A DNA stretch of 64,000 nt from contig JAFAVT010000077.1 in the NCBI GenBank assembly GCA_019242275.1, positions 9,474-73,473 of the forward strand, written 5' to 3'. The DNA comes from Alphaproteobacteria bacterium (GTDB lineage Bacteria; Pseudomonadota; Alphaproteobacteria; Micropepsales; Micropepsaceae). Of the stretch, positions 31,494 to 39,761 are shown in pieces. The notes beneath the pieces are model-generated. The model did not search any database. It was not told where the DNA came from and worked only from the letters and a program-made list of their open reading frames with translations. How positions within the stretch are numbered: position 1 is the stretch's first letter; each line of letters starts with the position of its first letter. The translations under genes and the position numbers were made by a program.

Positions 31494-32030
31494 ATGGGAA
31501 CCACCGAACGCCTCTATGCACCGGCCTTCCTGCGCGTTCTGGCGGCGCTGGTGCCGCTTCTCTGCGGTCTTCTGGGCGTCTTCATCGCCAATATCCCGAT
31601 TTCGCTGGCCGGCGGCCTGGTGCCGGCGCCGCTCCTGGGCCTGATCCCGCTTTATTTCTGGTGTTTGGTGCGCCCGGACTTGATGACTCCGGCCGCCGCC
31701 TTCGCCATCGGCTTGCTGCAAGATGTGATGAGCGGTGCACCGCCCGGGGTCTGGACCTTGGGCTTTGTCGTCGCCTATGCCGTGGTGGCGCGCCAGCGGG
31801 ACAGTTTTGCCGGGCTGTCGGGTTTTGCCGCCGTGCTGGGTTTTGCCGCCGCAGCCCTGGCTGCCTCAATCACCGCAACCCTGGCGGTCCTGCTGCTTTA
31901 TTCCGTCACGCCCTCATTGGGCGCTTTGGGGGCGGAACTTGCCATGACCGTGACCGCTTACATACCTGGCGCCCTGCTGGTGAGCCTGTTGCATCACCGC
32001 CTGGTCGGCCCGCTTCGGAGTGACTTCTGA
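31494..32030 (+). CDS. mreD: Rod shape-determining protein MreD
   Basis: 178-aa polytopic membrane protein lying between mreC and mrdA. Confidence 0.85.
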   Translation: MGTTERLYAPAFLRVLAALVPLLCGLLGVFIANIPISLAGGLVPAPLLGLIPLYFWCLVRPDLMTPAAAFAIGLLQDVMSGAPPGVWTLGFVVAYAVVARQRDSFAGLSGFAAVLGFAAAALAASITATLAVLLLYSVTPSLGALGAELAMTVTAYIPGALLVSLLHHRLVGPLRSDF

Positions 32031-33952
32031 TGCCGGTCTTCGACAAGAAGGACAAGAGTCGTTACGCCGCCTTTACCCGCCGCACCCTGGGTATGGGCGG
32101 CGGCATGGCGGTCGTCTTCGCCGTGCTGGGCGGTCAGCTTTACAAGCTCCAGATTCTGGACGGCGAAGACTATAAGGTCCGGGCCGAGGACAATCGCGTT
32201 TCCGAGCGCCCGATTTCCCCGCCCCGCGGTCGGCTGGTGGATCGCTTCGGCACCGAACTGGCCAACAACCGGCGCAACTATCGCGTCCTGATCGTTTCCG
32301 AGCAGGCAACCGAGGGTGTGGCCGAAGCACTGGACGCCATCGGCAAGGTGATTGAACTCACCGATCAGCAGAAGAAGAAGGTGCTGGGCGAAATTGCCGC
32401 CAACAAGAAATTCGTCCCCGTCCCGGTGGCGGAAAATCTCAGTTGGGAGGAATTTTCTCGCCTCAATCTGCATTTGCCCTATTTGCCCGGTGTGCAGCCC
32501 GATGTCGGCGAAACGCGCGATTATCCCTTCGGCAAGGAGATGGTGCATGTGCTGGGCTATGTCGGCTCGGTGGCGCCGGAAGACATGGCCGGCGACGATG
32601 AACGCCTGCTGGACGTTCCCGGTTTCCGCGTCGGCAAGCGCGGCATTGAAAAGGCCTTCGACAAGGAAGTGCGGGGCAAGGCCGGCTACAGCAAGGTCGA
32701 GGTGGATGCTCATGGCCGCGTCATCCGCGAACTGGGCAAGGACCCAGGTATGGCCGGCCAGGATGTCTGGCTCACTCTGGACTGCGAGTTGCAGCGTTTC
32801 GCCGATCAGCGTCTGGGCGATGAAAGCGCTGCCGCGGTGGTTATGGATGTAGCGACCGGTGATGTCCTGGCGCTCTCCTCCACCCCCGGCTTTGATCCCA
32901 ACTGGTTCAATGTTGGCGTTACCGGCCCGCAATGGCGCGAACTCACCACCTCCGATTACAAGCCGCTGCTCAACAAGGTGATAAGCGGCATCTATCCGCC
33001 CGGCTCCACCTTCAAGACGGCGGTAGCGCTGGCGGCGCTGGAAGCCGGCATTGCCACCCCGGCCTATCACGTTACCTGCAGCGGCGTTTTCAATTTCGGT
33101 GGCCATGCCTTTCACTGCTGGCAGCACAAGGGTCATGGCACGCTGGACATCGAGGGCGGCATCAAGAATAGCTGCGACGTCTTCTTTTACGAAACCGCCC
33201 ACCGGGTCGGCATTGACGCTATCGAACAATCCGCCCGCAAGCTGGGGCTTGGCGCTCCCACCGGCATCGAACTGCCTGGCGAACATTCCGGCCTGATTCC
33301 TGGTCGCGCCTGGAAACAGAAAACCTACAAGCAGGTCTGGCAGCAGGGCGATACGCTCAGTGTCGGCATCGGCCAGGGCTATGTCACCGCCACGCCCTTG
33401 CAGCTTTGCCAGCAGGCGGCGCGCATCGCCAGCGGCAAGCAGGTGTCACCGCGGCTCGTGCATTCGGTGGGCAGCCGGGTTCTGCCGCGGGCCGAACCGG
33501 CGAAGCTGGATTTCACCGATGAGGCGCTGACCAAAGTGCGTGCCGGCATGAACAAGGTGATGAACGAGCCCGGCGGCACCGCATTTTCTTGGCGCATTCC
33601 CGATGCCGGTTTCGAGATGGCGGGCAAGACCGGCACGGCCCAGGTACGCGTCTATTCCCAGGCCGAGCACCAGGCCGGCATGAAGAGCAACGCCTCCTTG
33701 GACTGGAAGCTGCGCGACCATGCTTTGTTTATCGGCTTTGCCCCGGTGCAAGCGCCCAAATATGCCATTGTCTGCATGATTGAGCATGGCGCCGTCACCG
33801 CTCATCCCCATGTGCAGATGGCGCGCGACATCCTGCTCTTCGCCCAGAAGCGCGACACGCTGGGCAAGCCAACAGCCTATCCGGTGACGTCCGCGGCGGC
33901 CGCCCCGCCCGTCAAGGGCGCCGCCCTTGTCAGCGGCAAGGAGCCTGGCTGA
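32030..33952 (+). CDS. mrdA: Penicillin-binding protein 2 (elongasome transpeptidase)
   Basis: 640 aa. Transpeptidase motifs STFK (PPGSTFKT), SCD (KNSCDVFFY) and KTG (AGKTGTAQV) are present. Its start overlaps the mreD stop. Confidence 0.96.
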   Translation: MPVFDKKDKSRYAAFTRRTLGMGGGMAVVFAVLGGQLYKLQILDGEDYKVRAEDNRVSERPISPPRGRLVDRFGTELANNRRNYRVLIVSEQATEGVAEALDAIGKVIELTDQQKKKVLGEIAANKKFVPVPVAENLSWEEFSRLNLHLPYLPGVQPDVGETRDYPFGKEMVHVLGYVGSVAPEDMAGDDERLLDVPGFRVGKRGIEKAFDKEVRGKAGYSKVEVDAHGRVIRELGKDPGMAGQDVWLTLDCELQRFADQRLGDESAAAVVMDVATGDVLALSSTPGFDPNWFNVGVTGPQWRELTTSDYKPLLNKVISGIYPPGSTFKTAVALAALEAGIATPAYHVTCSGVFNFGGHAFHCWQHKGHGTLDIEGGIKNSCDVFFYETAHRVGIDAIEQSARKLGLGAPTGIELPGEHSGLIPGRAWKQKTYKQVWQQGDTLSVGIGQGYVTATPLQLCQQAARIASGKQVSPRLVHSVGSRVLPRAEPAKLDFTDEALTKVRAGMNKVMNEPGGTAFSWRIPDAGFEMAGKTGTAQVRVYSQAEHQAGMKSNASLDWKLRDHALFIGFAPVQAPKYAIVCMIEHGAVTAHPHVQMARDILLFAQKRDTLGKPTAYPVTSAAAAPPVKGAALVSGKEPG

Positions 33953-35106
33953 TGGCCCTGCGTGCCTACGCTGCCGCCAAGCGGACCTTGTCGGTGGCTG
34001 ACAAGCTGATGGACGTGAATTGGGGCCTGGTGCTGCTGATTACCCTGTGCGCCAGCGCCGGCATCGCCATGCTCTATTCGGTGGCCGGCGGCCATATGCA
34101 GCCATGGGCGCTGTCGCAGTTGGTCAAGTTCACCATCGGCTTTCTGGTGATGGTGGCGGTGGCGACCATTGATGTGCGGGTGTGGATGTCGCTCGCCTAT
34201 CCGGCTTACGCCCTGGCGCTGCTGCTGCTGGTGGCGGTGGTGGCCGTGGGCCATATGGGCCTTGGTGCCCAGCGCTGGGTCAATATCGGCGGCATGGATT
34301 TGCAACCGTCTGAACTGATGAAGGTCTCTTTGGTGCTGGCGCTTGCGCGCTTCCTGCACGGCAAGAGCGTGGAGGAAGTCTCCAAGCCCCTCAATCTCGC
34401 CATTGCGCTGGCGATGATCGCCATCCCCGCCATTTTCGTTGTGCTGCAACCCAATCTGGGCACTACCCTGATCATCATTGCCGACGGCTGCTCGCTGCTG
34501 TTCCTGGCAGGGCTTAGTTGGTGGTGGATAGCCCCCACCGTGGCCGGCGTCGCTGCCGCGGTGCCGCTGGCCTGGCGTTTTCTGCTGCATGACTACCAAA
34601 AGGCGCGGGTGGAGACCTTTCTCGATCCGGAAGCCGACGCCCTGGGCAAGGGCTGGAATATCACCCAGGCCAAGATCGCCATCGGCTCCGGCGGTCCCTC
34701 CGGCAAGGGGTTTTTGGGCGGCACCCAGAGCCGGCTCAACTTTCTCCCCGAGAAGCAGACTGATTTCATCTTCACCAATTTTGCCGAGGAGTTCGGCTTT
34801 GTCGGCTCGGTGGCGCTGTTGATCCTGTTTGCCGTCATCATTGGCTATGGCGTGCAGATCGCCATGAGCGCCCGCAGCCAGTTTGCCCGTCTGCTGGCCA
34901 TGGGCATCACCTTGAACTTCTTTTTCTACATCATGATCAATGGCGCCATGGTGATGGGCCTGATCCCGGTGGTGGGCATTCCCATGCCGCTGCTTTCTTA
35001 CGGTGGTTCGGCCATGCTGACAGTAATGTTCGGCTTTGGTCTTCTGATGAGCGTGCATATCCACCGGCAGGTGGAGATACCGCGACACAGCGGCGGGATT
35101 ATTTAG
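33952..35106 (+). CDS. rodA: Peptidoglycan glycosyltransferase RodA (SEDS family)
   Basis: 384 aa, polytopic. Motifs QPSELMK, PEKQTDFIF and IPVVGIPMPLLSYGGS. Its start overlaps the mrdA stop. Confidence 0.96.
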   Translation: MALRAYAAAKRTLSVADKLMDVNWGLVLLITLCASAGIAMLYSVAGGHMQPWALSQLVKFTIGFLVMVAVATIDVRVWMSLAYPAYALALLLLVAVVAVGHMGLGAQRWVNIGGMDLQPSELMKVSLVLALARFLHGKSVEEVSKPLNLAIALAMIAIPAIFVVLQPNLGTTLIIIADGCSLLFLAGLSWWWIAPTVAGVAAAVPLAWRFLLHDYQKARVETFLDPEADALGKGWNITQAKIAIGSGGPSGKGFLGGTQSRLNFLPEKQTDFIFTNFAEEFGFVGSVALLILFAVIIGYGVQIAMSARSQFARLLAMGITLNFFFYIMINGAMVMGLIPVVGIPMPLLSYGGSAMLTVMFGFGLLMSVHIHRQVEIPRHSGGII

Positions 35107-35448: not shown

Positions 35449-35524
<76 letters not shown>

Positions 35525-35684: not shown

Positions 35685-35915
35685 ATGTCCGAAATGCTCA
35701 AAAACACCGCGCCCGGCGCCTCCTGCGAGGATGTGGCGCTGAAGCTGCTTTACCTGGTGGCGTGGGGCGAAAATATTGACCTGGAGGGTTGGGCCAAGGC
35801 CGACCGCGACTGGATTTTGGGCACCTATGCCGAGTGCCTGAGGGCGGTGAAGGATCCCCAATCCCGCCCGCCGGTCGCCAAGCCGGCTTCTGTTGCAGTG
35901 CAACAGAAGGGTTAG
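35685..35915 (+). CDS. Hypothetical protein (76 aa)
   Basis: MSEMLKNTAPGASCEDVALKLLYLVAWGENIDLEGWAKADRDWILGTYAECLRAVKDPQSRPPVAKPASVAVQQKG. A GGAG lies upstream of ATG 35685. I recognise no motif. Confidence 0.45.
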   Translation: MSEMLKNTAPGASCEDVALKLLYLVAWGENIDLEGWAKADRDWILGTYAECLRAVKDPQSRPPVAKPASVAVQQKG

Positions 35916-36031
35916 GGCCTTTGGCCGCGCCTTGTGACTTTTTTGTAATGCTGTAAATCCGAGACCTGAACTTAACGTCAGCTTCGTTGGAGCGCTTATT
36001 CAAGCAAATGCATCAACCATGGGAGATGTGC

Positions 36032-36259
36032 ATGTCACGTGAGAAGACTCTTGAGAGCATCAGCAATGATCGTCGCGGCTTTTTCCGCACCCTGATGATC
36101 GGCGCCGGCGCTACCGCCGTTGCTCTGCCCCTGATGACCACCCAGTCGCTGGCGCAGAAGGATGGTGAAGACCCCGTCAACGGCAAGTGCGATGACGGCC
36201 TGATCGTCAGCAAGAAGACCGGCAAGTGCAAGGCCATCAAGAAGGCGCCGGCTCAGTAG
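36032..36259 (+). CDS. Small exported protein with twin-arginine (Tat) signal; 34-aa Lys-rich, 2-Cys mature part
   Basis: MSREKTLESISNDRRGFFRTLMIGAGATAVALPLMTTQSLA/QKDGEDPVNGKCDDGLIVSKKTGKCKAIKKAPAQ. It has the RRxFF Tat motif, a hydrophobic region and an SLA-Q cleavage-like site. A GGGAG Shine-Dalgarno lies 6 nt before ATG 36032. Confidence 0.6.
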   Translation: MSREKTLESISNDRRGFFRTLMIGAGATAVALPLMTTQSLAQKDGEDPVNGKCDDGLIVSKKTGKCKAIKKAPAQ

Positions 36260-36299
36260 AAAAAGCCTTCCGGCTGCGGCCGGACAGCTTGTTATAAGG

Positions 36300-36329
36300 C
36301 GGCCGCGCCTCTGGGGGGAGGCGCGGCCG
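36300..36329 (+). terminator. GC-rich hairpin between small Tat-peptide gene and methyltransferase gene
   Basis: Sequence c-GGCCGCGCCT-ctgggggg-AGGCGCGGCC-g followed by ttcttg. A second, smaller hairpin tCCGGC-tgcg-GCCGGa lies at 36269-36284. Confidence 0.5.
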
Positions 36330-36345
36330 TTCTTGCGAGGGCCTG

Positions 36346-37503
36346 ATGTCAAATCCCAAAGTCCATCCGGCGGTGCTGCTCTCGCCGGTCGAGGATGGTT
36401 ATGTCGCCTATGATCCGGTGGCGGACCGGCTGCACCAGCTCAATCCCGTCGCCGCCCTGTTGACCGAACTTTGCGACGGCAGCCGCAGCGTCGCGGAAGT
36501 GGCTGAACTGGCCTCGCCTTTCCTGCCGGAAGGCGAGACCGAGGCTGTGGCCAAATGGGTGGCCCAGGCGACCGAAGCCGGCCTTCTTACTGACGCAGCC
36601 GGCGACGGCGCGGCCGGCGAACTATCCGCCGCCGAGCTGTTCAAGCTGACCAAAAGATTGCGCGAACAAGGCAAGGCCCAGACGGCCCATATCTGCATCA
36701 AGCGGGTGGTGGAGCTTGAGCCGCAAAACAGCGAAGCGTGGTTCGATCTGGGTGAAATCACCCATTATCTTGGCCGCCGCGAAGAGGCTCGCGCCGCCTA
36801 TCAAAAGTATTTCGACGCCAATCCCCATGATGGCGAAGTCGAGCATCTGCTGATCGCGCTCAATGACGGGCCGCCCCCCGAGCGCGCTTCCGACCGCGCC
36901 ATCCAGCACATCTACAAGAATTTCGCCGCCAGCTATGAAAACCTGATGCTGCAGGACCTCAAATATGCCGGTCCCCAGCGCATGATGGAGGCGGTGCAAA
37001 GCGTCATCGGCGACCGTTCGGACATGACGATCCTGGATCTGGGCTGCGGCTCCGGCCTGGCCGGCGTGATGTTCCGGCCCCGCGCCGCCACCCTGGCCGG
37101 GGTGGATCTGTCGCCCGAAATGGTGGAGCTGGCGCGGGCCCGCAATCTTTATGACCGTTTGGAAGTTGGCGAGGTCACCCAATGGCTGAAGGACGGCGAC
37201 AGCCGCTTCGACCTCATCGTCAGCACCGATGTCATCATCTATTTCGGCGATCTCACCGCCATCATTGCCGCCGCCGCCCGACGCCTCAACCCGGGGGGCT
37301 ATTTTGCCTTTTCAACCGAGCTGGGAAAGAAGGCGCCTTTCCATCTCACCGACACCGGCCGCTACAGCCATCACCCTGACCATGTGCGCGCATGTGCCGC
37401 CGCCGCCGGACTGACAGTCTGCCGCATCAATGAAGGCTTCCTGCGCATGGAATATGGCGAGGAAGTGACGGGCCTTTTTGCCGTGCTGCAAAAGCCGGCT
37501 TGA
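36346..37503 (+). CDS. PqqD-like (RRE) domain - TPR - class I SAM-dependent methyltransferase fusion protein
   Basis: 385 aa. The N-terminal ~85 aa (VAYDPVADRLHQLNPVAALLTELCDGSRSVAEVAELASPFL...EAGLL) fit the PqqD family pattern. The middle is TPR-like (AHICIKRVVELEPQNSEAWFDLGEI..GRREEARAAYQKYFDANP). The C-terminus carries MT motifs ILDLGCGSGLAG, GVDLSPEM and FDLIVSTDVIIY. Confidence 0.75.
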   Translation: MSNPKVHPAVLLSPVEDGYVAYDPVADRLHQLNPVAALLTELCDGSRSVAEVAELASPFLPEGETEAVAKWVAQATEAGLLTDAAGDGAAGELSAAELFKLTKRLREQGKAQTAHICIKRVVELEPQNSEAWFDLGEITHYLGRREEARAAYQKYFDANPHDGEVEHLLIALNDGPPPERASDRAIQHIYKNFAASYENLMLQDLKYAGPQRMMEAVQSVIGDRSDMTILDLGCGSGLAGVMFRPRAATLAGVDLSPEMVELARARNLYDRLEVGEVTQWLKDGDSRFDLIVSTDVIIYFGDLTAIIAAAARRLNPGGYFAFSTELGKKAPFHLTDTGRYSHHPDHVRACAAAAGLTVCRINEGFLRMEYGEEVTGLFAVLQKPA

Positions 37504-37506
37504 GCG

Positions 37507-37899
37507 TTACGGCTTCTGTCCCTTCGGCAGGGCCGCGACTTCCGCGGGCGTCATCGGCGTCATGGCTTTGACGATGCAGGGCGTGGTGATGCCGATGCCG
37601 CTGCGCCTGAGCTTGAAGTCGAAATCCAACGCCGAGCAAATGCTGTCGCCGCGAAATCTGCTCACCAGCGACACATCGGGCTCGGAGAGGTCAACGCAAC
37701 GGCTGGCCAGGTCCAGGCGGTAAAATTTGTTCATGCCGACACGGATATACATGATCTTCTCGTCGGCGCTGGACTTCCAATTCTCGAACTGCCGCACAAA
37801 AAAGCATTCATTCTTTCGGACAGGTGTCTGGGCCGCTGCAGGCACCGCCAGCAGGACCGCCGCGCCGGCCAGCGCCGCTCTCAAGGTTGCTCCGCTCAT
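37507..37899 (-). CDS. Secreted 4-Cys hypothetical protein (resembles DUF6491-type proteins)
   Basis: 130 aa with signal peptide AVLLAVPAAAQ. The mature part has four Cys (NECFFVRQFENW...ASRCVDL...DSICSALD...TTPCIVKAM). Confidence 0.6.
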   Translation of the reverse strand: MSGATLRAALAGAAVLLAVPAAAQTPVRKNECFFVRQFENWKSSADEKIMYIRVGMNKFYRLDLASRCVDLSEPDVSLVSRFRGDSICSALDFDFKLRRSGIGITTPCIVKAMTPMTPAEVAALPKGQKP

Positions 37900-38000: not shown

Positions 38001-38729
38001 TTGACCCAGACATTGAACGGCAAGACGGCCTTTATCACCGGCGCTGCTGCCGGCATGGGCCGCGCCATCGCCGAAACGTTCCTTGCCGCCGGCGCCCGCG
38101 TCATCGCCACCGACCGCAACGCGGCCGGCCTGGCCGGTGTCGGCAGCGAGCAACACGGCCTGGACGTGACCGACCCGGCCGCGGTTGACACCTTGGCCGC
38201 GCGTATCGGCCGGGTTGATATCCTGGTGAACTGCGCCGGTTTCGTGGAAACCGGCACCTTGCTGGAAAGCGAGGAAGAGCAGTGGCACAAATCCTTCGAA
38301 CTCAATGTCTTTGCCATGGCGCGCGTCACCAAGGCTTTTCTGCCGGCCATGCTGGCCAATGGCGGGGGCTGCATCATCAACATTGCCTCGGTGGCGGGAT
38401 CGGTGAAGGGCATTCCCAACCGCTGCATCTACAGCGCCAGCAAGGCGGCGGTGATCGGCCTGACCAAGTCGGTTGCGACCGACTATCTTTCCGGCGGCAT
38501 TCGCTGCAATGCTATTTGTCCTGGCACGGTTGACACACCATCGCTGCAACAGCGCCTGCGCGATATGGGCGATTATGAAGCGGCGCTGAAGGCCTTCAAC
38601 GCCCGCCAACCCATGGGCCGCATGGGCAGGGCCGGCGAGATCGCCGAACTGGCGCTTTATCTGGCCTCCGATGCCGGCGCCTTCGCCACCGGCCAGACCT
38701 TCATCATTGATGGGGGGCTTACCCTTTAG
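38001..38729 (+). CDS. SDR family NAD(P)-dependent oxidoreductase
   Basis: 242 aa: TGAAAGMGRAIA (TGxxxGxG), NIASVAG, and catalytic YSASKAAV (YxxxK). Confidence 0.9.
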   Translation: MTQTLNGKTAFITGAAAGMGRAIAETFLAAGARVIATDRNAAGLAGVGSEQHGLDVTDPAAVDTLAARIGRVDILVNCAGFVETGTLLESEEEQWHKSFELNVFAMARVTKAFLPAMLANGGGCIINIASVAGSVKGIPNRCIYSASKAAVIGLTKSVATDYLSGGIRCNAICPGTVDTPSLQQRLRDMGDYEAALKAFNARQPMGRMGRAGEIAELALYLASDAGAFATGQTFIIDGGLTL

Positions 38730-39702
38730 AAGCAGCGCGCTGGCTTTCGATCACCTGCCAAGCCAGCAACACCGGCACCGCCACCACCAGATCGCGCGCC
38801 CGCCGCAGCAGCGAAACCGCCAGGCCGATTTCCGGTGCCAGGCCGAACACCGGCGCCAGCAAAGCATAGCCGGCTTCCTGCACCCCGATCGCGGCGGGGA
38901 TAAAAACGGTGGCGCTGCGCAATCCTTCCAGCAGTGCCTGGATGGCAATCGCCTGCCACGGCCCGGGCGACAGCCCCATCACGGTCAGCACCGCCCACAG
39001 CCACAAGCCGCTGGCCATCCAGCCGGCCAGTTGCAGCAGGATGGAAAAGGCCAGCTTGCCCCGCCGCCGATAGATGCCGGTGATCAGCGTTCGGAAGGCT
39101 TCGGCATGATTGACGCGGCCGGCGAACAGTTTTTCCCCCAGCCGGCCGGCCCAGCGGCTGCCGCCGATCTGGCCTAAGGCAAAGCCGATGCTTCCCAGCG
39201 ACAGGAACAGCGCCCCTCCCAGCATCGCCCCGACATAGGGTGACAGCACCGCATTGGCCGTCAGCAGCTTCAGACTGGCCAAGACGCCCAGCAAAACATA
39301 AAGCCCCTGGGCAAAGGTCTCGGCGGTCAGGTCGGCAACCACCGCCGCCGAGGCAGGGGTTGCCGCCATGCCTCCCAGCACCAGCACCCGTGCAGCCAGC
39401 ACCACCCCGCCAAGCTGGGTGATGGGCAGCACGTCACTGGCGGAATCGCGCAACTGCCGCGCCGCCACAATCACCGACAGCGGCACGGGCCGCGGCAACA
39501 GCGGCACCAGGCCCAGGGCCAGCACAATCTCGGCCAGCAATCCCGCCGCGACGATGAGCGCAAAGCCGCCCATACCTGCCCGGGCCATCGCGGCGCGCAC
39601 CGTGGCAAGGTCGAATTGCAGCAGCACGGCGGCCAGCACTGCCGCCCCCAGCAGCAGTGCGGCAAGCAGCCGCCAGGTTGCGCTAAGACGAAATGGTTTC
39701 AT
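38719..39702 (-). CDS. Lysylphosphatidylglycerol-synthase-TM-region (UPF0104, flippase-like) family membrane protein
   Basis: Polytopic membrane protein of about 8 TM segments. The overall pattern resembles the LPG_synthase_TM family, without a C-terminal aminoacyl-transferase domain. The start is either ATG 39702 or GTG 39723, and the latter lies inside repeat A. Its 3' end overlaps the SDR gene by 11 nt. Confidence 0.6.
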   Translation of the reverse strand: MKPFRLSATWRLLAALLLGAAVLAAVLLQFDLATVRAAMARAGMGGFALIVAAGLLAEIVLALGLVPLLPRPVPLSVIVAARQLRDSASDVLPITQLGGVVLAARVLVLGGMAATPASAAVVADLTAETFAQGLYVLLGVLASLKLLTANAVLSPYVGAMLGGALFLSLGSIGFALGQIGGSRWAGRLGEKLFAGRVNHAEAFRTLITGIYRRRGKLAFSILLQLAGWMASGLWLWAVLTVMGLSPGPWQAIAIQALLEGLRSATVFIPAAIGVQEAGYALLAPVFGLAPEIGLAVSLLRRARDLVVAVPVLLAWQVIESQRAASKG

Positions 39703-39717
39703 CGAAGAAGGACGCTT

Positions 39718-39761
39718 CCTCACCCTTCGCCCTTCGACAAGCTCAGGAGGCTAGGGTGAGG
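39718..39761 (-). repeat. Dispersed palindromic repeat family A, half copy
   Basis: Sequence cctcacccttcgcccttcgacaagctcaggaggctagggtgagg. Confidence 0.7.

Follow-up and report, generated by a model that had tools for sequence, protein, structure and literature searches.

A twin-arginine signal peptide gene paired with an RRE-TPR-methyltransferase fusion gene in Micropepsaceae: a candidate cassette for peptide modification before Tat export

Analysis of a 64,000-nucleotide stretch of an alphaproteobacterial genome of the family Micropepsaceae (assembly GCA_019242275.1, contig JAFAVT010000077.1, positions 9,474 to 73,473; hereafter the window) identified a two-gene cassette. A gene for a 75-residue peptide with a leader of the twin-arginine translocation (Tat) type stands directly upstream of a gene for a 385-residue enzyme, in which a RiPP recognition element (RRE; RiPPs are peptides made on the ribosome and then modified post-translationally), in this case PqqD-like, is fused to a tetratricopeptide repeat (TPR) region and a class I methyltransferase dependent on S-adenosylmethionine (SAM). 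The two genes very likely encode a dedicated enzyme and its substrate. The full explanation, a RiPP-like cassette in which the peptide is modified and then exported, seems to us slightly more probable than not, and N-methylation of lysine specifically is a prospect that we would place slightly below even. An earlier note, made from the sequence alone, had described the peptide open reading frame (ORF) with its twin-arginine motif, SLA/Q site, Lys- and Cys-containing tail and GGGAG sequence, a spacer with two GC-rich hairpins, and a second ORF with PqqD, TPR-like and class I methyltransferase parts; all of this holds at the coordinates given, with both hairpins located and Pfam regions found for all three parts of the enzyme. 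The features of the cassette are as follows.

36032..36259, + strand: precursor gene, 75 aa, Tat-type leader plus Lys-rich core (ORF, Shine-Dalgarno sequence, homologues, synteny, pN/pS)
36032..36154, + strand: leader, residues 1-41 (alignments)
36155..36256, + strand: core, residues 42-75, QKDGEDPVNGKCDDGLIVSKKTGKCKAIKKAPAQ, with an acidic block, a two-Cys loop and 8 Lys; presumed methylation substrate and exported product
36269..36284, + strand: first, smaller hairpin past the peptide stop codon (TCCGGCTGCGGCCGGA), found in the closest relatives only
~36296..36334, + strand: terminator-like hairpin GGCGGCCGCGCCTC...GAGGCGCGGCCG followed by TTCTT; presumed attenuator (RNAfold, RNAalifold)
36346..37503, + strand: fusion enzyme, 385 aa, RRE(PqqD)-TPR-class I SAM methyltransferase (Pfam, homologues, AlphaFold2)
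36355..36594, + strand: RRE/PqqD-like domain, approximately residues 4-83, beta-sheet then three helices (PF05402, models, Foldseek)
36628..36858, + strand: TPR region, approximately residues 95-171, five helices (Pfam, PDB sequence profile, model)
36892..37491, + strand: class I (Rossmann) SAM methyltransferase domain, approximately residues 183-382 (Pfam, fold, invariant residues)

Pairing of the two genes was surveyed in metagenome contigs scanned with a profile of the RRE and TPR half of the enzyme only, which returned 80 loci with 54-86% identity; small ORFs at these loci were detected by script, misses were then inspected, and upstream DNA was present at 79 loci. At 77 of these, a small twin-arginine ORF was found in the same orientation as the fusion gene, its end lying 72-150 nt ahead of the fusion start. 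On three long contigs with wholly different flanking genes, a gene of 63-76 aa lay directly 5' of the fusion gene in all. The pairing was also kept in distant relatives of ~25-45% identity, with a tally of 5 of 6; the peptides of distant members that keep it are given below.

L165, metagenome-assembled genome (MAG) labelled Acidobacteria: leader plus GK/GR repeats (GRG-type)
L166: leader plus polyK
L168: SRRSMLKRLLLGG...ALA/Q and then RKKATKKK-type repeats over ~80 aa, the acidic block being absent
L171, Myxococcota MAG: VDAVLDLVGQTRRDFLKRV... plus a Lys-rich tail
L172: ...AKKKAVSKKKAAGKKKAVGKKK..., KKKA-type (KKKAxGKKKA), almost pure K/A/G/S
L173: leader plus GKG/GRP repeats (GRG-type)

The spacing between peptide and fusion genes was 33 nt in L168 and 16 nt in L166, and the genes overlapped in L173. 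On a contig with Planctomycetota-type neighbours (L167), a Tat-like leader was followed by KA/RA repeats in a shifted frame. The synteny of fusion homologues with small Tat-signal peptides, raised in the earlier note, is therefore borne out by the 77 loci, by their differing flanks and by the distant relatives, the shared motif being RRxF(L/F)K. A representative search suggests a modest family, with ~22 full-length clusters at 50% identity counted by eye from a list contaminated by giant TPR proteins. A scan of GTDB genomes with the generic pattern [IVM]LDLGCGSG gave at least two full-length members (L004, L005) among the matches listed, and a protein search with the N-terminal profile returned mostly gene fragments and served for choosing distant members. 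As a separate observation, a 4.7-Mb long-read contig (L174, 1540-2814) carries an IS1595-family transposase gene between the peptide and fusion genes; the fusion gene is split and the peptide ends abnormally (...GKGKGKGKGKSLAYPVYTHTH), which from its sequence looks like a cassette inactivated by an insertion sequence.

The precursor gene is preceded by a GGGAG Shine-Dalgarno sequence 6 nt 5' of its ATG. Its product begins MSREKTLESISNDRRGFFRTL and consists of the leader MSREKTLESISNDRRGFFRTLMIGAGATAVALPLMTTQSLA and, past the predicted SLA/Q cut, a 34-residue tail with 8 Lys and 2 Cys. The leader comprises an n-region motif (L/I-E/D-x-x-L/I-x-x-V/I), the twin-arginine motif DRRGFFRTL, the h-region MIGAGATAVALPLMTTQ and an S-L-A signal-peptidase site, which match the Tat consensus of S/T-R-R-x-F-L-K, a moderately hydrophobic h-region and an A-x-A c-region; the n-region is long, as is usual for Tat leaders. 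Across the family the N-terminal ~45 residues are conserved, with an n-region (e.g. SLDNALAHV), DRRGFLKTL, an Ala/Gly/Val-rich h-region, P-L-M-T-T/S and small-x-A. In a leader alignment of 18 diverse members, R14, R15, F17, A31, P33 and A41 were invariant, and a small-x-A arrangement at -3/-1 was found in 17 of the 18, L165 differing with L-G-A. Curated Tat-signal hidden Markov models (HMMs) matched many of these same members (TIGR01409 in 13/18, best E 6e-5; TIGR02811 in 14/18; PF10518 in 10/18), and the Tat assignment of the window's peptide was made because of its motif and of the HMM matches of its relatives. Precursor homologues formed 79 clusters at the 90% identity level, and a crude Nei-Gojobori ratio of non-synonymous to synonymous differences (pN/pS) was 0.31 for the leader and 0.60 for the core; these values below 1 indicate that the small ORF is under protein-level selection, strongest on the leader. 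Judged by these comparisons, the 75-aa ORF is a real, conserved gene. The conserved small-x-A site suggests removal of the leader, and the leader as a whole makes the peptide a candidate for Tat-dependent export.

The core is more variable than the leader, with mean pairwise identities of 0.30 and 0.52 respectively (0.21 and 0.49 between core types), and at least five unrelated core types were found in the family.

Window's core type: QKEGEDPGPGGKCDDGLVVSKKTGKCxVPKKKAP
Second core type: ADDGCPEGQKKNKKGECAVPKKKAE
Third core type: QDDGGDEGKKKKKKKKEE
Fourth core type: QDQGG..GKGKKGKGKKGKG..
Fifth core type: ..SCNQGLVLNKKKNVCAVKKKKKEE

Each of 61 distinct close-family peptides carried 7-11 Lys (median 8), irrespective of whether its core was a two-Cys loop, polyK or GK repeats. 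Asp and Glu together had a median of 5, and an acidic block lay directly past the cleavage site in most cores; this block is not universal, because the L168 core has none. Cys was paired in 36 of the 61 peptides and missing from 25, so that Cys, one of the methylation targets named in the earlier note, does not hold as a general target; the N-terminus, also named there, can likewise not be the target in the cytoplasm, because in its mature form it does not exist there. Arg was absent from most close-family cores and C-terminal residues were not conserved. Across these peptides the sole universal core feature is Lys/Arg richness, with Cys and acidic blocks dispensable, and the combination of conserved leader and hypervariable C-terminus is, at the level of sequence, a RiPP-like pattern.

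Homologues of the fusion enzyme formed at least 120 clusters at the 90% identity level, at least 62% identical to it over 95-100% of the query and 377-424 aa long; they came mostly from Rhizomicrobium/Micropepsaceae MAGs and were labelled 'predicted TPR repeat methyltransferase' (Joint Genome Institute, JGI) or 'PqqD family peptide modification chaperone'. No signal peptide was read from the sequence of the enzyme, and therefore any modification must be cytoplasmic and precede export. An AlphaFold2 model of the whole enzyme from a 61-sequence alignment (predicted local distance difference test, pLDDT, 92; predicted TM-score, pTM, 0.85) showed a beta-sheet with three helices, five TPR helices and a Rossmann-type methyltransferase domain. 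The N-terminal domain scored as PqqD, as the earlier note had expected, with 24.6 bits for PF05402 against a gathering cut-off of 23.4 (residues 19-81). TIGR03859, the model for PqqD, gave 21.6 against a cut-off of 46, a score so far below it that the fusion enzyme is not PqqD itself. The AlphaFold2 models contain the winged helix of an RRE: its three strands span residues 11-15, 18-23 and 28-32, and the three helices that come next span 34-42, 49-59 and 66-77. A domain-only model of residues 1-95 (pLDDT 85.6) had closest PDB neighbours in Foldseek that were almost all RREs, led by 6jx3_B (E 1e-4, TM 0.73/0.80) and including TbiB1, TruD, LynD, the PbtF RRE, PqqD (5sxy), CteB, SuiB, ThcOx and MccB; the lasso-peptide B1 proteins among them (6jx3_B, TbiB1) were solved with leaders bound. 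The sheet and first helix of the RRE are the most conserved part of the protein (LLSPVEDGYVAYDPxxDRLHQLNPxAALLxELCDGSRS). Their co-conservation with the n-region of the leader supports the RRE as a candidate binder of the leader of its cognate precursor. Two bacterial protein lysine methyltransferases contributed weak matches, each through one of its domains, at ranks 19-50 of the same search, namely Rv2067c of M. tuberculosis (8hkr, TMq 0.57-0.64, E ~0.1) and PKMT2 of Rickettsia (5doo/5dpl, E 0.5-1.3); these model-based matches fit the idea of Lys methylation, yet are too weak to interpret.

The TPR region was matched over residues 97-171 by TPR_9/14/16/2/19, with TPR_14 at 29.8 bits against 23.5 and other TPR families below their cut-offs. 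The methyltransferase domain was matched over residues 212-326 by Methyltransf_23/25/11/31/12 (E 1e-13 to 1e-16, 50-60 bits against cut-offs of 21-30) and carries motif I ILDLGCGSG, post-I GVDLS, motif II FDLIVSTDVIIYFGD and a family-specific LTDTGRYxHHPDHVR. LDLGCGSG and D254 are invariant and the SAM motifs are intact. Invariant acidic residues also occur at E276, D302, E325, D336 and E369, which we take, from reading the sequence by eye, to lie outside the SAM-binding motifs. A PrmA match (PF06325, 24.4 bits against 22) appears to be cross-matching among class I families. In a PDB sequence profile the domain came closest to METTL27 (7qcb), its best relative of solved structure, and to phosphoethanolamine N-methyltransferases, and the same profile matched TPR proteins. 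As a side observation, family member P0305 has an N-terminal extension of ~300 aa before its PqqD-TPR part, by eye PhyH/2-oxoglutarate oxygenase-like; the protein is truncated by the end of its contig. The extension hints, from sequence likeness, at a second modification (e.g. hydroxylation) in some cassettes.

The two genes are separated in the window by 86 nt (36260-36345), where the main hairpin ends 11 nt before the enzyme start codon. RNAfold of 61 intergenic regions showed a GC-rich stem (GACGGCCGYG...CRCGGCCGTC) with a T-rich tail behind it at essentially all close-family loci, ending 8-35 nt before the enzyme start codon, and RNAalifold of 43 sequences gave 16 pairs, 12 of them with compensatory changes on both sides. 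The hairpin of the window itself was not called by a consensus terminator scan because its T-tract is weak, and the case for a terminator or attenuator is made by the relatives and the covariation. There is no room for a promoter past the stem, and the enzyme gene must therefore be transcribed by read-through, an arrangement that is common in RiPP operons and yields excess precursor. The hairpin was absent in the distant members with genes 16-33 nt apart or overlapping (L166, L168, L173). Conservation of the smaller hairpin did not extend to more distant loci. In its minus-strand reading AGGCTTTTTC comes next, and a minus-strand terminator is called there by the consensus scan, with no minus-strand gene ending at that place.

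The preferred account may be set out as a sequence of steps. Precursor residues 1-41 would double as Tat signal peptide and RRE-recognised leader by means of the n-region motif just before RR. The PqqD-type RRE, perhaps with the TPR module, would hold the n-region/RR part of the signal peptide in the cytoplasm, and the SAM-dependent methyltransferase domain would methylate the unstructured basic core, most likely on its ~8 lysines at their N-epsilon amines and, in relatives, on Lys/Arg. Release of the leader would then allow recognition by TatBC and Tat export, signal peptidase I would cut past the conserved small-x-A site, and what remains would be a methyl-lysine polycation or polyampholyte, periplasmic or secreted, with a disulfide loop in the window's type. 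In the close family, a leaky terminator hairpin would keep precursor transcripts above enzyme transcripts. Tat export is post-translational, which would give time for modification, and it should tolerate polycationic cargo, which is probably a poor substrate for the general secretory (Sec) pathway; this would explain the choice of Tat. A wider proposal is that such cassettes form an unrecognised multi-phylum class of Tat-exported poly-methyl-lysine cationic peptides or small proteins, in which the Tat signal is the RRE leader and one enzyme both modifies and gates export; this is put forward tentatively, as something that we would sooner doubt than assert.

Several observations weigh against this account. 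There is no direct sign of any modification. The window's own peptide had no match to the curated Tat-signal HMMs TIGR01409 and PF10518. The relatives belong mostly to one alphaproteobacterial lineage (Micropepsaceae/Rhizomicrobium MAGs), and part of the synteny is therefore inherited, not independently maintained. The two exceptions among the 79 loci (L152, L157) had no Tat-leader peptide gene within the DNA fetched, and the same was true of L169/L170, alone among the distant relatives; these enzymes are orphans, or their substrates are encoded elsewhere. The window-type (type-1) core is itself well conserved, so that it is not a passive scaffold. Finally, whole-protein Foldseek matches were generic class I methyltransferases of mixed specificity (ToxA, MitM, UbiG, ChlM, NodS, NTMT1), and the chemistry (N-, O- or C-methylation) is therefore not readable from homology; Lys as the probable target is read from the composition of the cores. 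Directly upstream of the fusion gene in L169 lie a gene for an extracytoplasmic function (ECF) sigma factor and an uncharacterised ORF of 362 aa.

The alternative that survives best, which we nevertheless regard as rather unlikely, retains the same enzyme-substrate pair with a different chemistry, namely O-methylation of Asp/Glu or of the C-terminal carboxylate, N-methylation of Arg or of the backbone, or methylation at another position. The acidic block right past the cleavage site of most cores and the GRG-type repeats of L165 and L173 would suit it, as would the O-, N- and C-methyltransferases among the Foldseek neighbours and weak CheR and PCMT Pfam matches on the enzyme. Acidic targets, however, are lacking in L168 and in the almost pure K/A/G/S core of L172, the unconserved C-terminal residues count against carboxylate methylation, and Arg is missing from most close-family cores, in which Lys never falls below 7.

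It is decidedly less probable that the RRE-TPR part is a Tat-signal-binding chaperone or sensor of the TorD/DmsD kind, with the methyltransferase acting elsewhere on a small molecule or lipid and the peptide exported unmodified. The RRE fold and the conserved n-region fit signal-peptide binding, and we know of no established substrate for the COG4976 or METTL27-like methyltransferase family, nor for the cassette enzyme family. Chaperone-binding and transport functions overlap within Tat signal peptides (PMC3712460). However, an RRE covalently fused to a catalytic domain is the standard RiPP layout for acting on a bound peptide, the constant Lys richness of otherwise unrelated cores would still need explaining, and no other candidate substrate gene was conserved nearby among the neighbours tested at 85 loci.

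Export of the enzyme itself, carried as a signal-less passenger with the Tat-signal peptide into the periplasm to act there, is very improbable. According to PMC10924467, Tat exports folded complexes with a signal peptide on one partner only. The enzyme's lack of a signal peptide of its own agrees with this, but the RRE-bound leader would be the signal peptide itself, needed for the contact with TatBC and cleaved off afterwards, and an attenuator implies peptide in excess of enzyme and not a 1:1 ratio. Moreover, SAM is not known to be available in the periplasm. Least credible is a reading of the small ORF as a cis-regulatory leader peptide, in which ribosome stalling at Lys codons would control the terminator and methyltransferase expression: a cluster of ~8 Lys codons towards the 3' end of a short ORF, the conserved terminator-like hairpin that comes after it and, in the window, a nearby tRNA-Lys would suit it, but the ORF is 60-190 aa long and encodes an export signal and a cleavage site that are conserved and selected at the protein level, no conserved antiterminator or alternative pairing was seen in the intergenic RNA folds, the downstream gene is not one of Lys biosynthesis, tRNA-Lys was not among the genes called beside the cassette at the loci with listed neighbours (no systematic tRNA scan being run), and distant members keep the peptide with gaps of 16-33 nt or overlap and no room for the hairpin, which argues against a purely regulatory Lys-codon attenuator.

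The preferred account, modification followed by Tat export, can be compared with known systems. RRE-dependent RiPP pathways (PqqD/PqqE, TbiB1, LynD/TruD) share with the cassette a PqqD-type winged-helix RRE, a precursor gene directly upstream and a conserved leader with a variable core, and the structural match of the cassette's RRE to leader-bound RREs reaches TM 0.80. The cassette differs from them in that its enzyme is a TPR and class I methyltransferase protein and not a radical SAM enzyme, protease or cyclodehydratase, its leader is an entire Tat signal peptide, the neighbours tested included no conserved gene for a dedicated protease or transporter, and its cores are of low complexity, Lys-rich and up to ~140 aa long in relatives. 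Bufferins and oxazolins are the closest precedent for the export signal: they likewise have a precursor with a general-export signal peptide in place of a classical leader, but the route is Sec and not Tat, the modification is oxidation of Cys by MNIO enzymes, which have DUF2063 RRE partners, and not the work of a methyltransferase, and copper is bound by the products. Their authors describe an export signal on the precursor as highly unusual and speculate that a partner masks the signal peptide until modification is done (PMC12452194); RRE-associated DUF2282 precursors also carry Sec signals (PMC12710340), and Tat is not mentioned in either study (PMC12452194, PMC12710340).

The Tat proofreading chaperones, or redox enzyme maturation proteins (TorD, DmsD, NapD), resemble the cassette in that a cytoplasmic binder of the Tat signal couples maturation to export. 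They differ in having unrelated folds, cofactor-containing redox enzymes as clients and no catalytic domain, whereas the candidate binder here is an RRE fused to a methyltransferase; by analogy, the RRE would act functionally as a Tat proofreading chaperone. COG4976/METTL27-like proteins share the TPR and methyltransferase architecture, the motifs DVxIYxGxL and GRYxH and the JGI annotation, but the generic COG4976 family has no N-terminal RRE (e.g. a 526-aa protein at the Motiliproteus locus L006) and no adjacent Tat peptide. Multiple N-epsilon methylations are carried by surface-exposed or exported Lys-rich proteins, namely the C-terminal KKAA repeats of mycobacterial HBHA/LBP and Rickettsia OmpB, the latter methylated by PKMT1/2; in such Lys-rich repeats the methylation preserves charge and protects against proteolysis. 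The cores of L168 and L172 (RKKATKKK, KKKAxGKKKA) resemble the HBHA repeats, with methylation being putative here. The HBHA and OmpB systems have no sequence homology to the cassette and are not known to possess an RRE, a Tat leader or a dedicated methyltransferase gene alongside. The fungal epichloecyclins (GigC) are the only RiPPs for which a 2024 review of methyltransferases in this field lists methylated Lys side chains, and the review mentions no RRE-fused methyltransferase (PMC11285071). The epichloecyclins differ from the cassette in being fungal and in having just one dimethyl-Lys, in a cyclic peptide of seven residues; both their enzyme and their precursor are unrelated.

The earlier note knew of no described RiPP class that combines a Tat-signal precursor with an RRE-methyltransferase fusion, and we likewise found no description of one. 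Neither the fusion, nor a Tat-signal RiPP precursor, nor the peptide family was found in the open-access literature searched, which is no proof of novelty, and full-text searches on Tat-signal RiPP precursors, RRE-TPR-methyltransferase fusions and COG4976 returned nothing relevant. If the wider proposal of a multi-phylum class is true, it would supply the first case each of a Tat-dependent RiPP-like system, of a fusion between an RRE and a methyltransferase, and of RiPP-type Lys side-chain methylation in bacteria. If the preferred account is true, the cassette would extend RRE-guided modification to a plain class I methyltransferase and to a leader that is a complete Tat signal peptide. It would also provide a two-gene model for the premature-export problem raised for Sec-signal bufferins (PMC12452194), as well as a candidate physiological substrate for the widespread, uncharacterised COG4976/METTL27-like family. 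Methylated polycationic envelope peptides may then abound in soil Alphaproteobacteria (Micropepsaceae/Rhizomicrobium) and occur in other phyla, and possible roles of the product include envelope stabilisation, binding of polyanions and antagonism of competitors. At ~1.5 kb, the cassette is small enough for heterologous co-expression.

The surroundings of the cassette in the window contain the following features.

32030-35106, + strand: two ORFs 5' of the tRNA that by eye resemble a 640-aa penicillin-binding protein 2 and a 384-aa RodA, a putative cell-elongation cluster
35449-35524: tRNA-Lys(CTT)
35685..35915, + strand: 76-aa ORF (MSEMLKNTAPGASCEDVALKLLYLVAWGENIDLEGWAKADRDWILGTYAECLRAVKDP...), clade-restricted neighbour (tblastn)
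37507-37899, - strand: DUF6491 protein, 130 aa, with a signal peptide (PF20101, 31 bits against a cut-off of 27.5)
38001-38729, + strand: short-chain dehydrogenase/reductase (SDR) family oxidoreductase (adh_short_C2, E 4e-58)
38719-39723, - strand: membrane protein, lysylphosphatidylglycerol-synthase transmembrane region (PF03706, E 1e-16)

The tRNA-Lys and the small or secreted proteins that the earlier note had pointed out are present beside the locus, but they are not part of the conserved unit. The 76-aa ORF had no Pfam or NCBIfam match and was found by tblastn in 13 of 85 loci, which all belong to the closest clade; there it lies 300-500 nt 5' of the peptide gene and in the same orientation (e.g. 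L004 2151-2360); from this distribution it could be a clade-specific accessory gene or plain inherited synteny. The DUF6491 gene is convergent with the fusion gene, 3 nt past its stop codon, and was syntenic in 4/85 loci, while the SDR gene co-occurred in 5/85 and RodA in 4/85. The 76-aa ORF, DUF6491, SDR and RodA were therefore rejected as components of the system, their co-occurrence being confined to the closest relatives. The tRNA-Lys, regarded as incidental, was not among the called neighbours in annotated loci, where no systematic tRNA scan was run; Rfam found nothing but the tRNA at the locus. Since these other neighbours are not conserved with the pair, the functional unit is the two-gene cassette. 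The position of the PF03706 gene, related to membrane charge, in the vicinity of a polycationic peptide gene is probably a coincidence.

Upstream of the cassette, a conserved block was observed ~30-90 nt 5' of the peptide start across core types other than that of the window, with the form ATGAAAAATTAGTAAC...(~20 nt)...CATATT...TCAACCAGGGAGGCCATTTATG (L102, L105, L107, L114, L115, L117, L119, L138 and others). In the same region L137 and L160 have a GTTAC-N6-GTAAC palindrome, and the window's clade has TGACTTTTTTGTAATGC instead, at ~35934-35952. From its position and conservation, the block may be a putative promoter or operator of the cassette.

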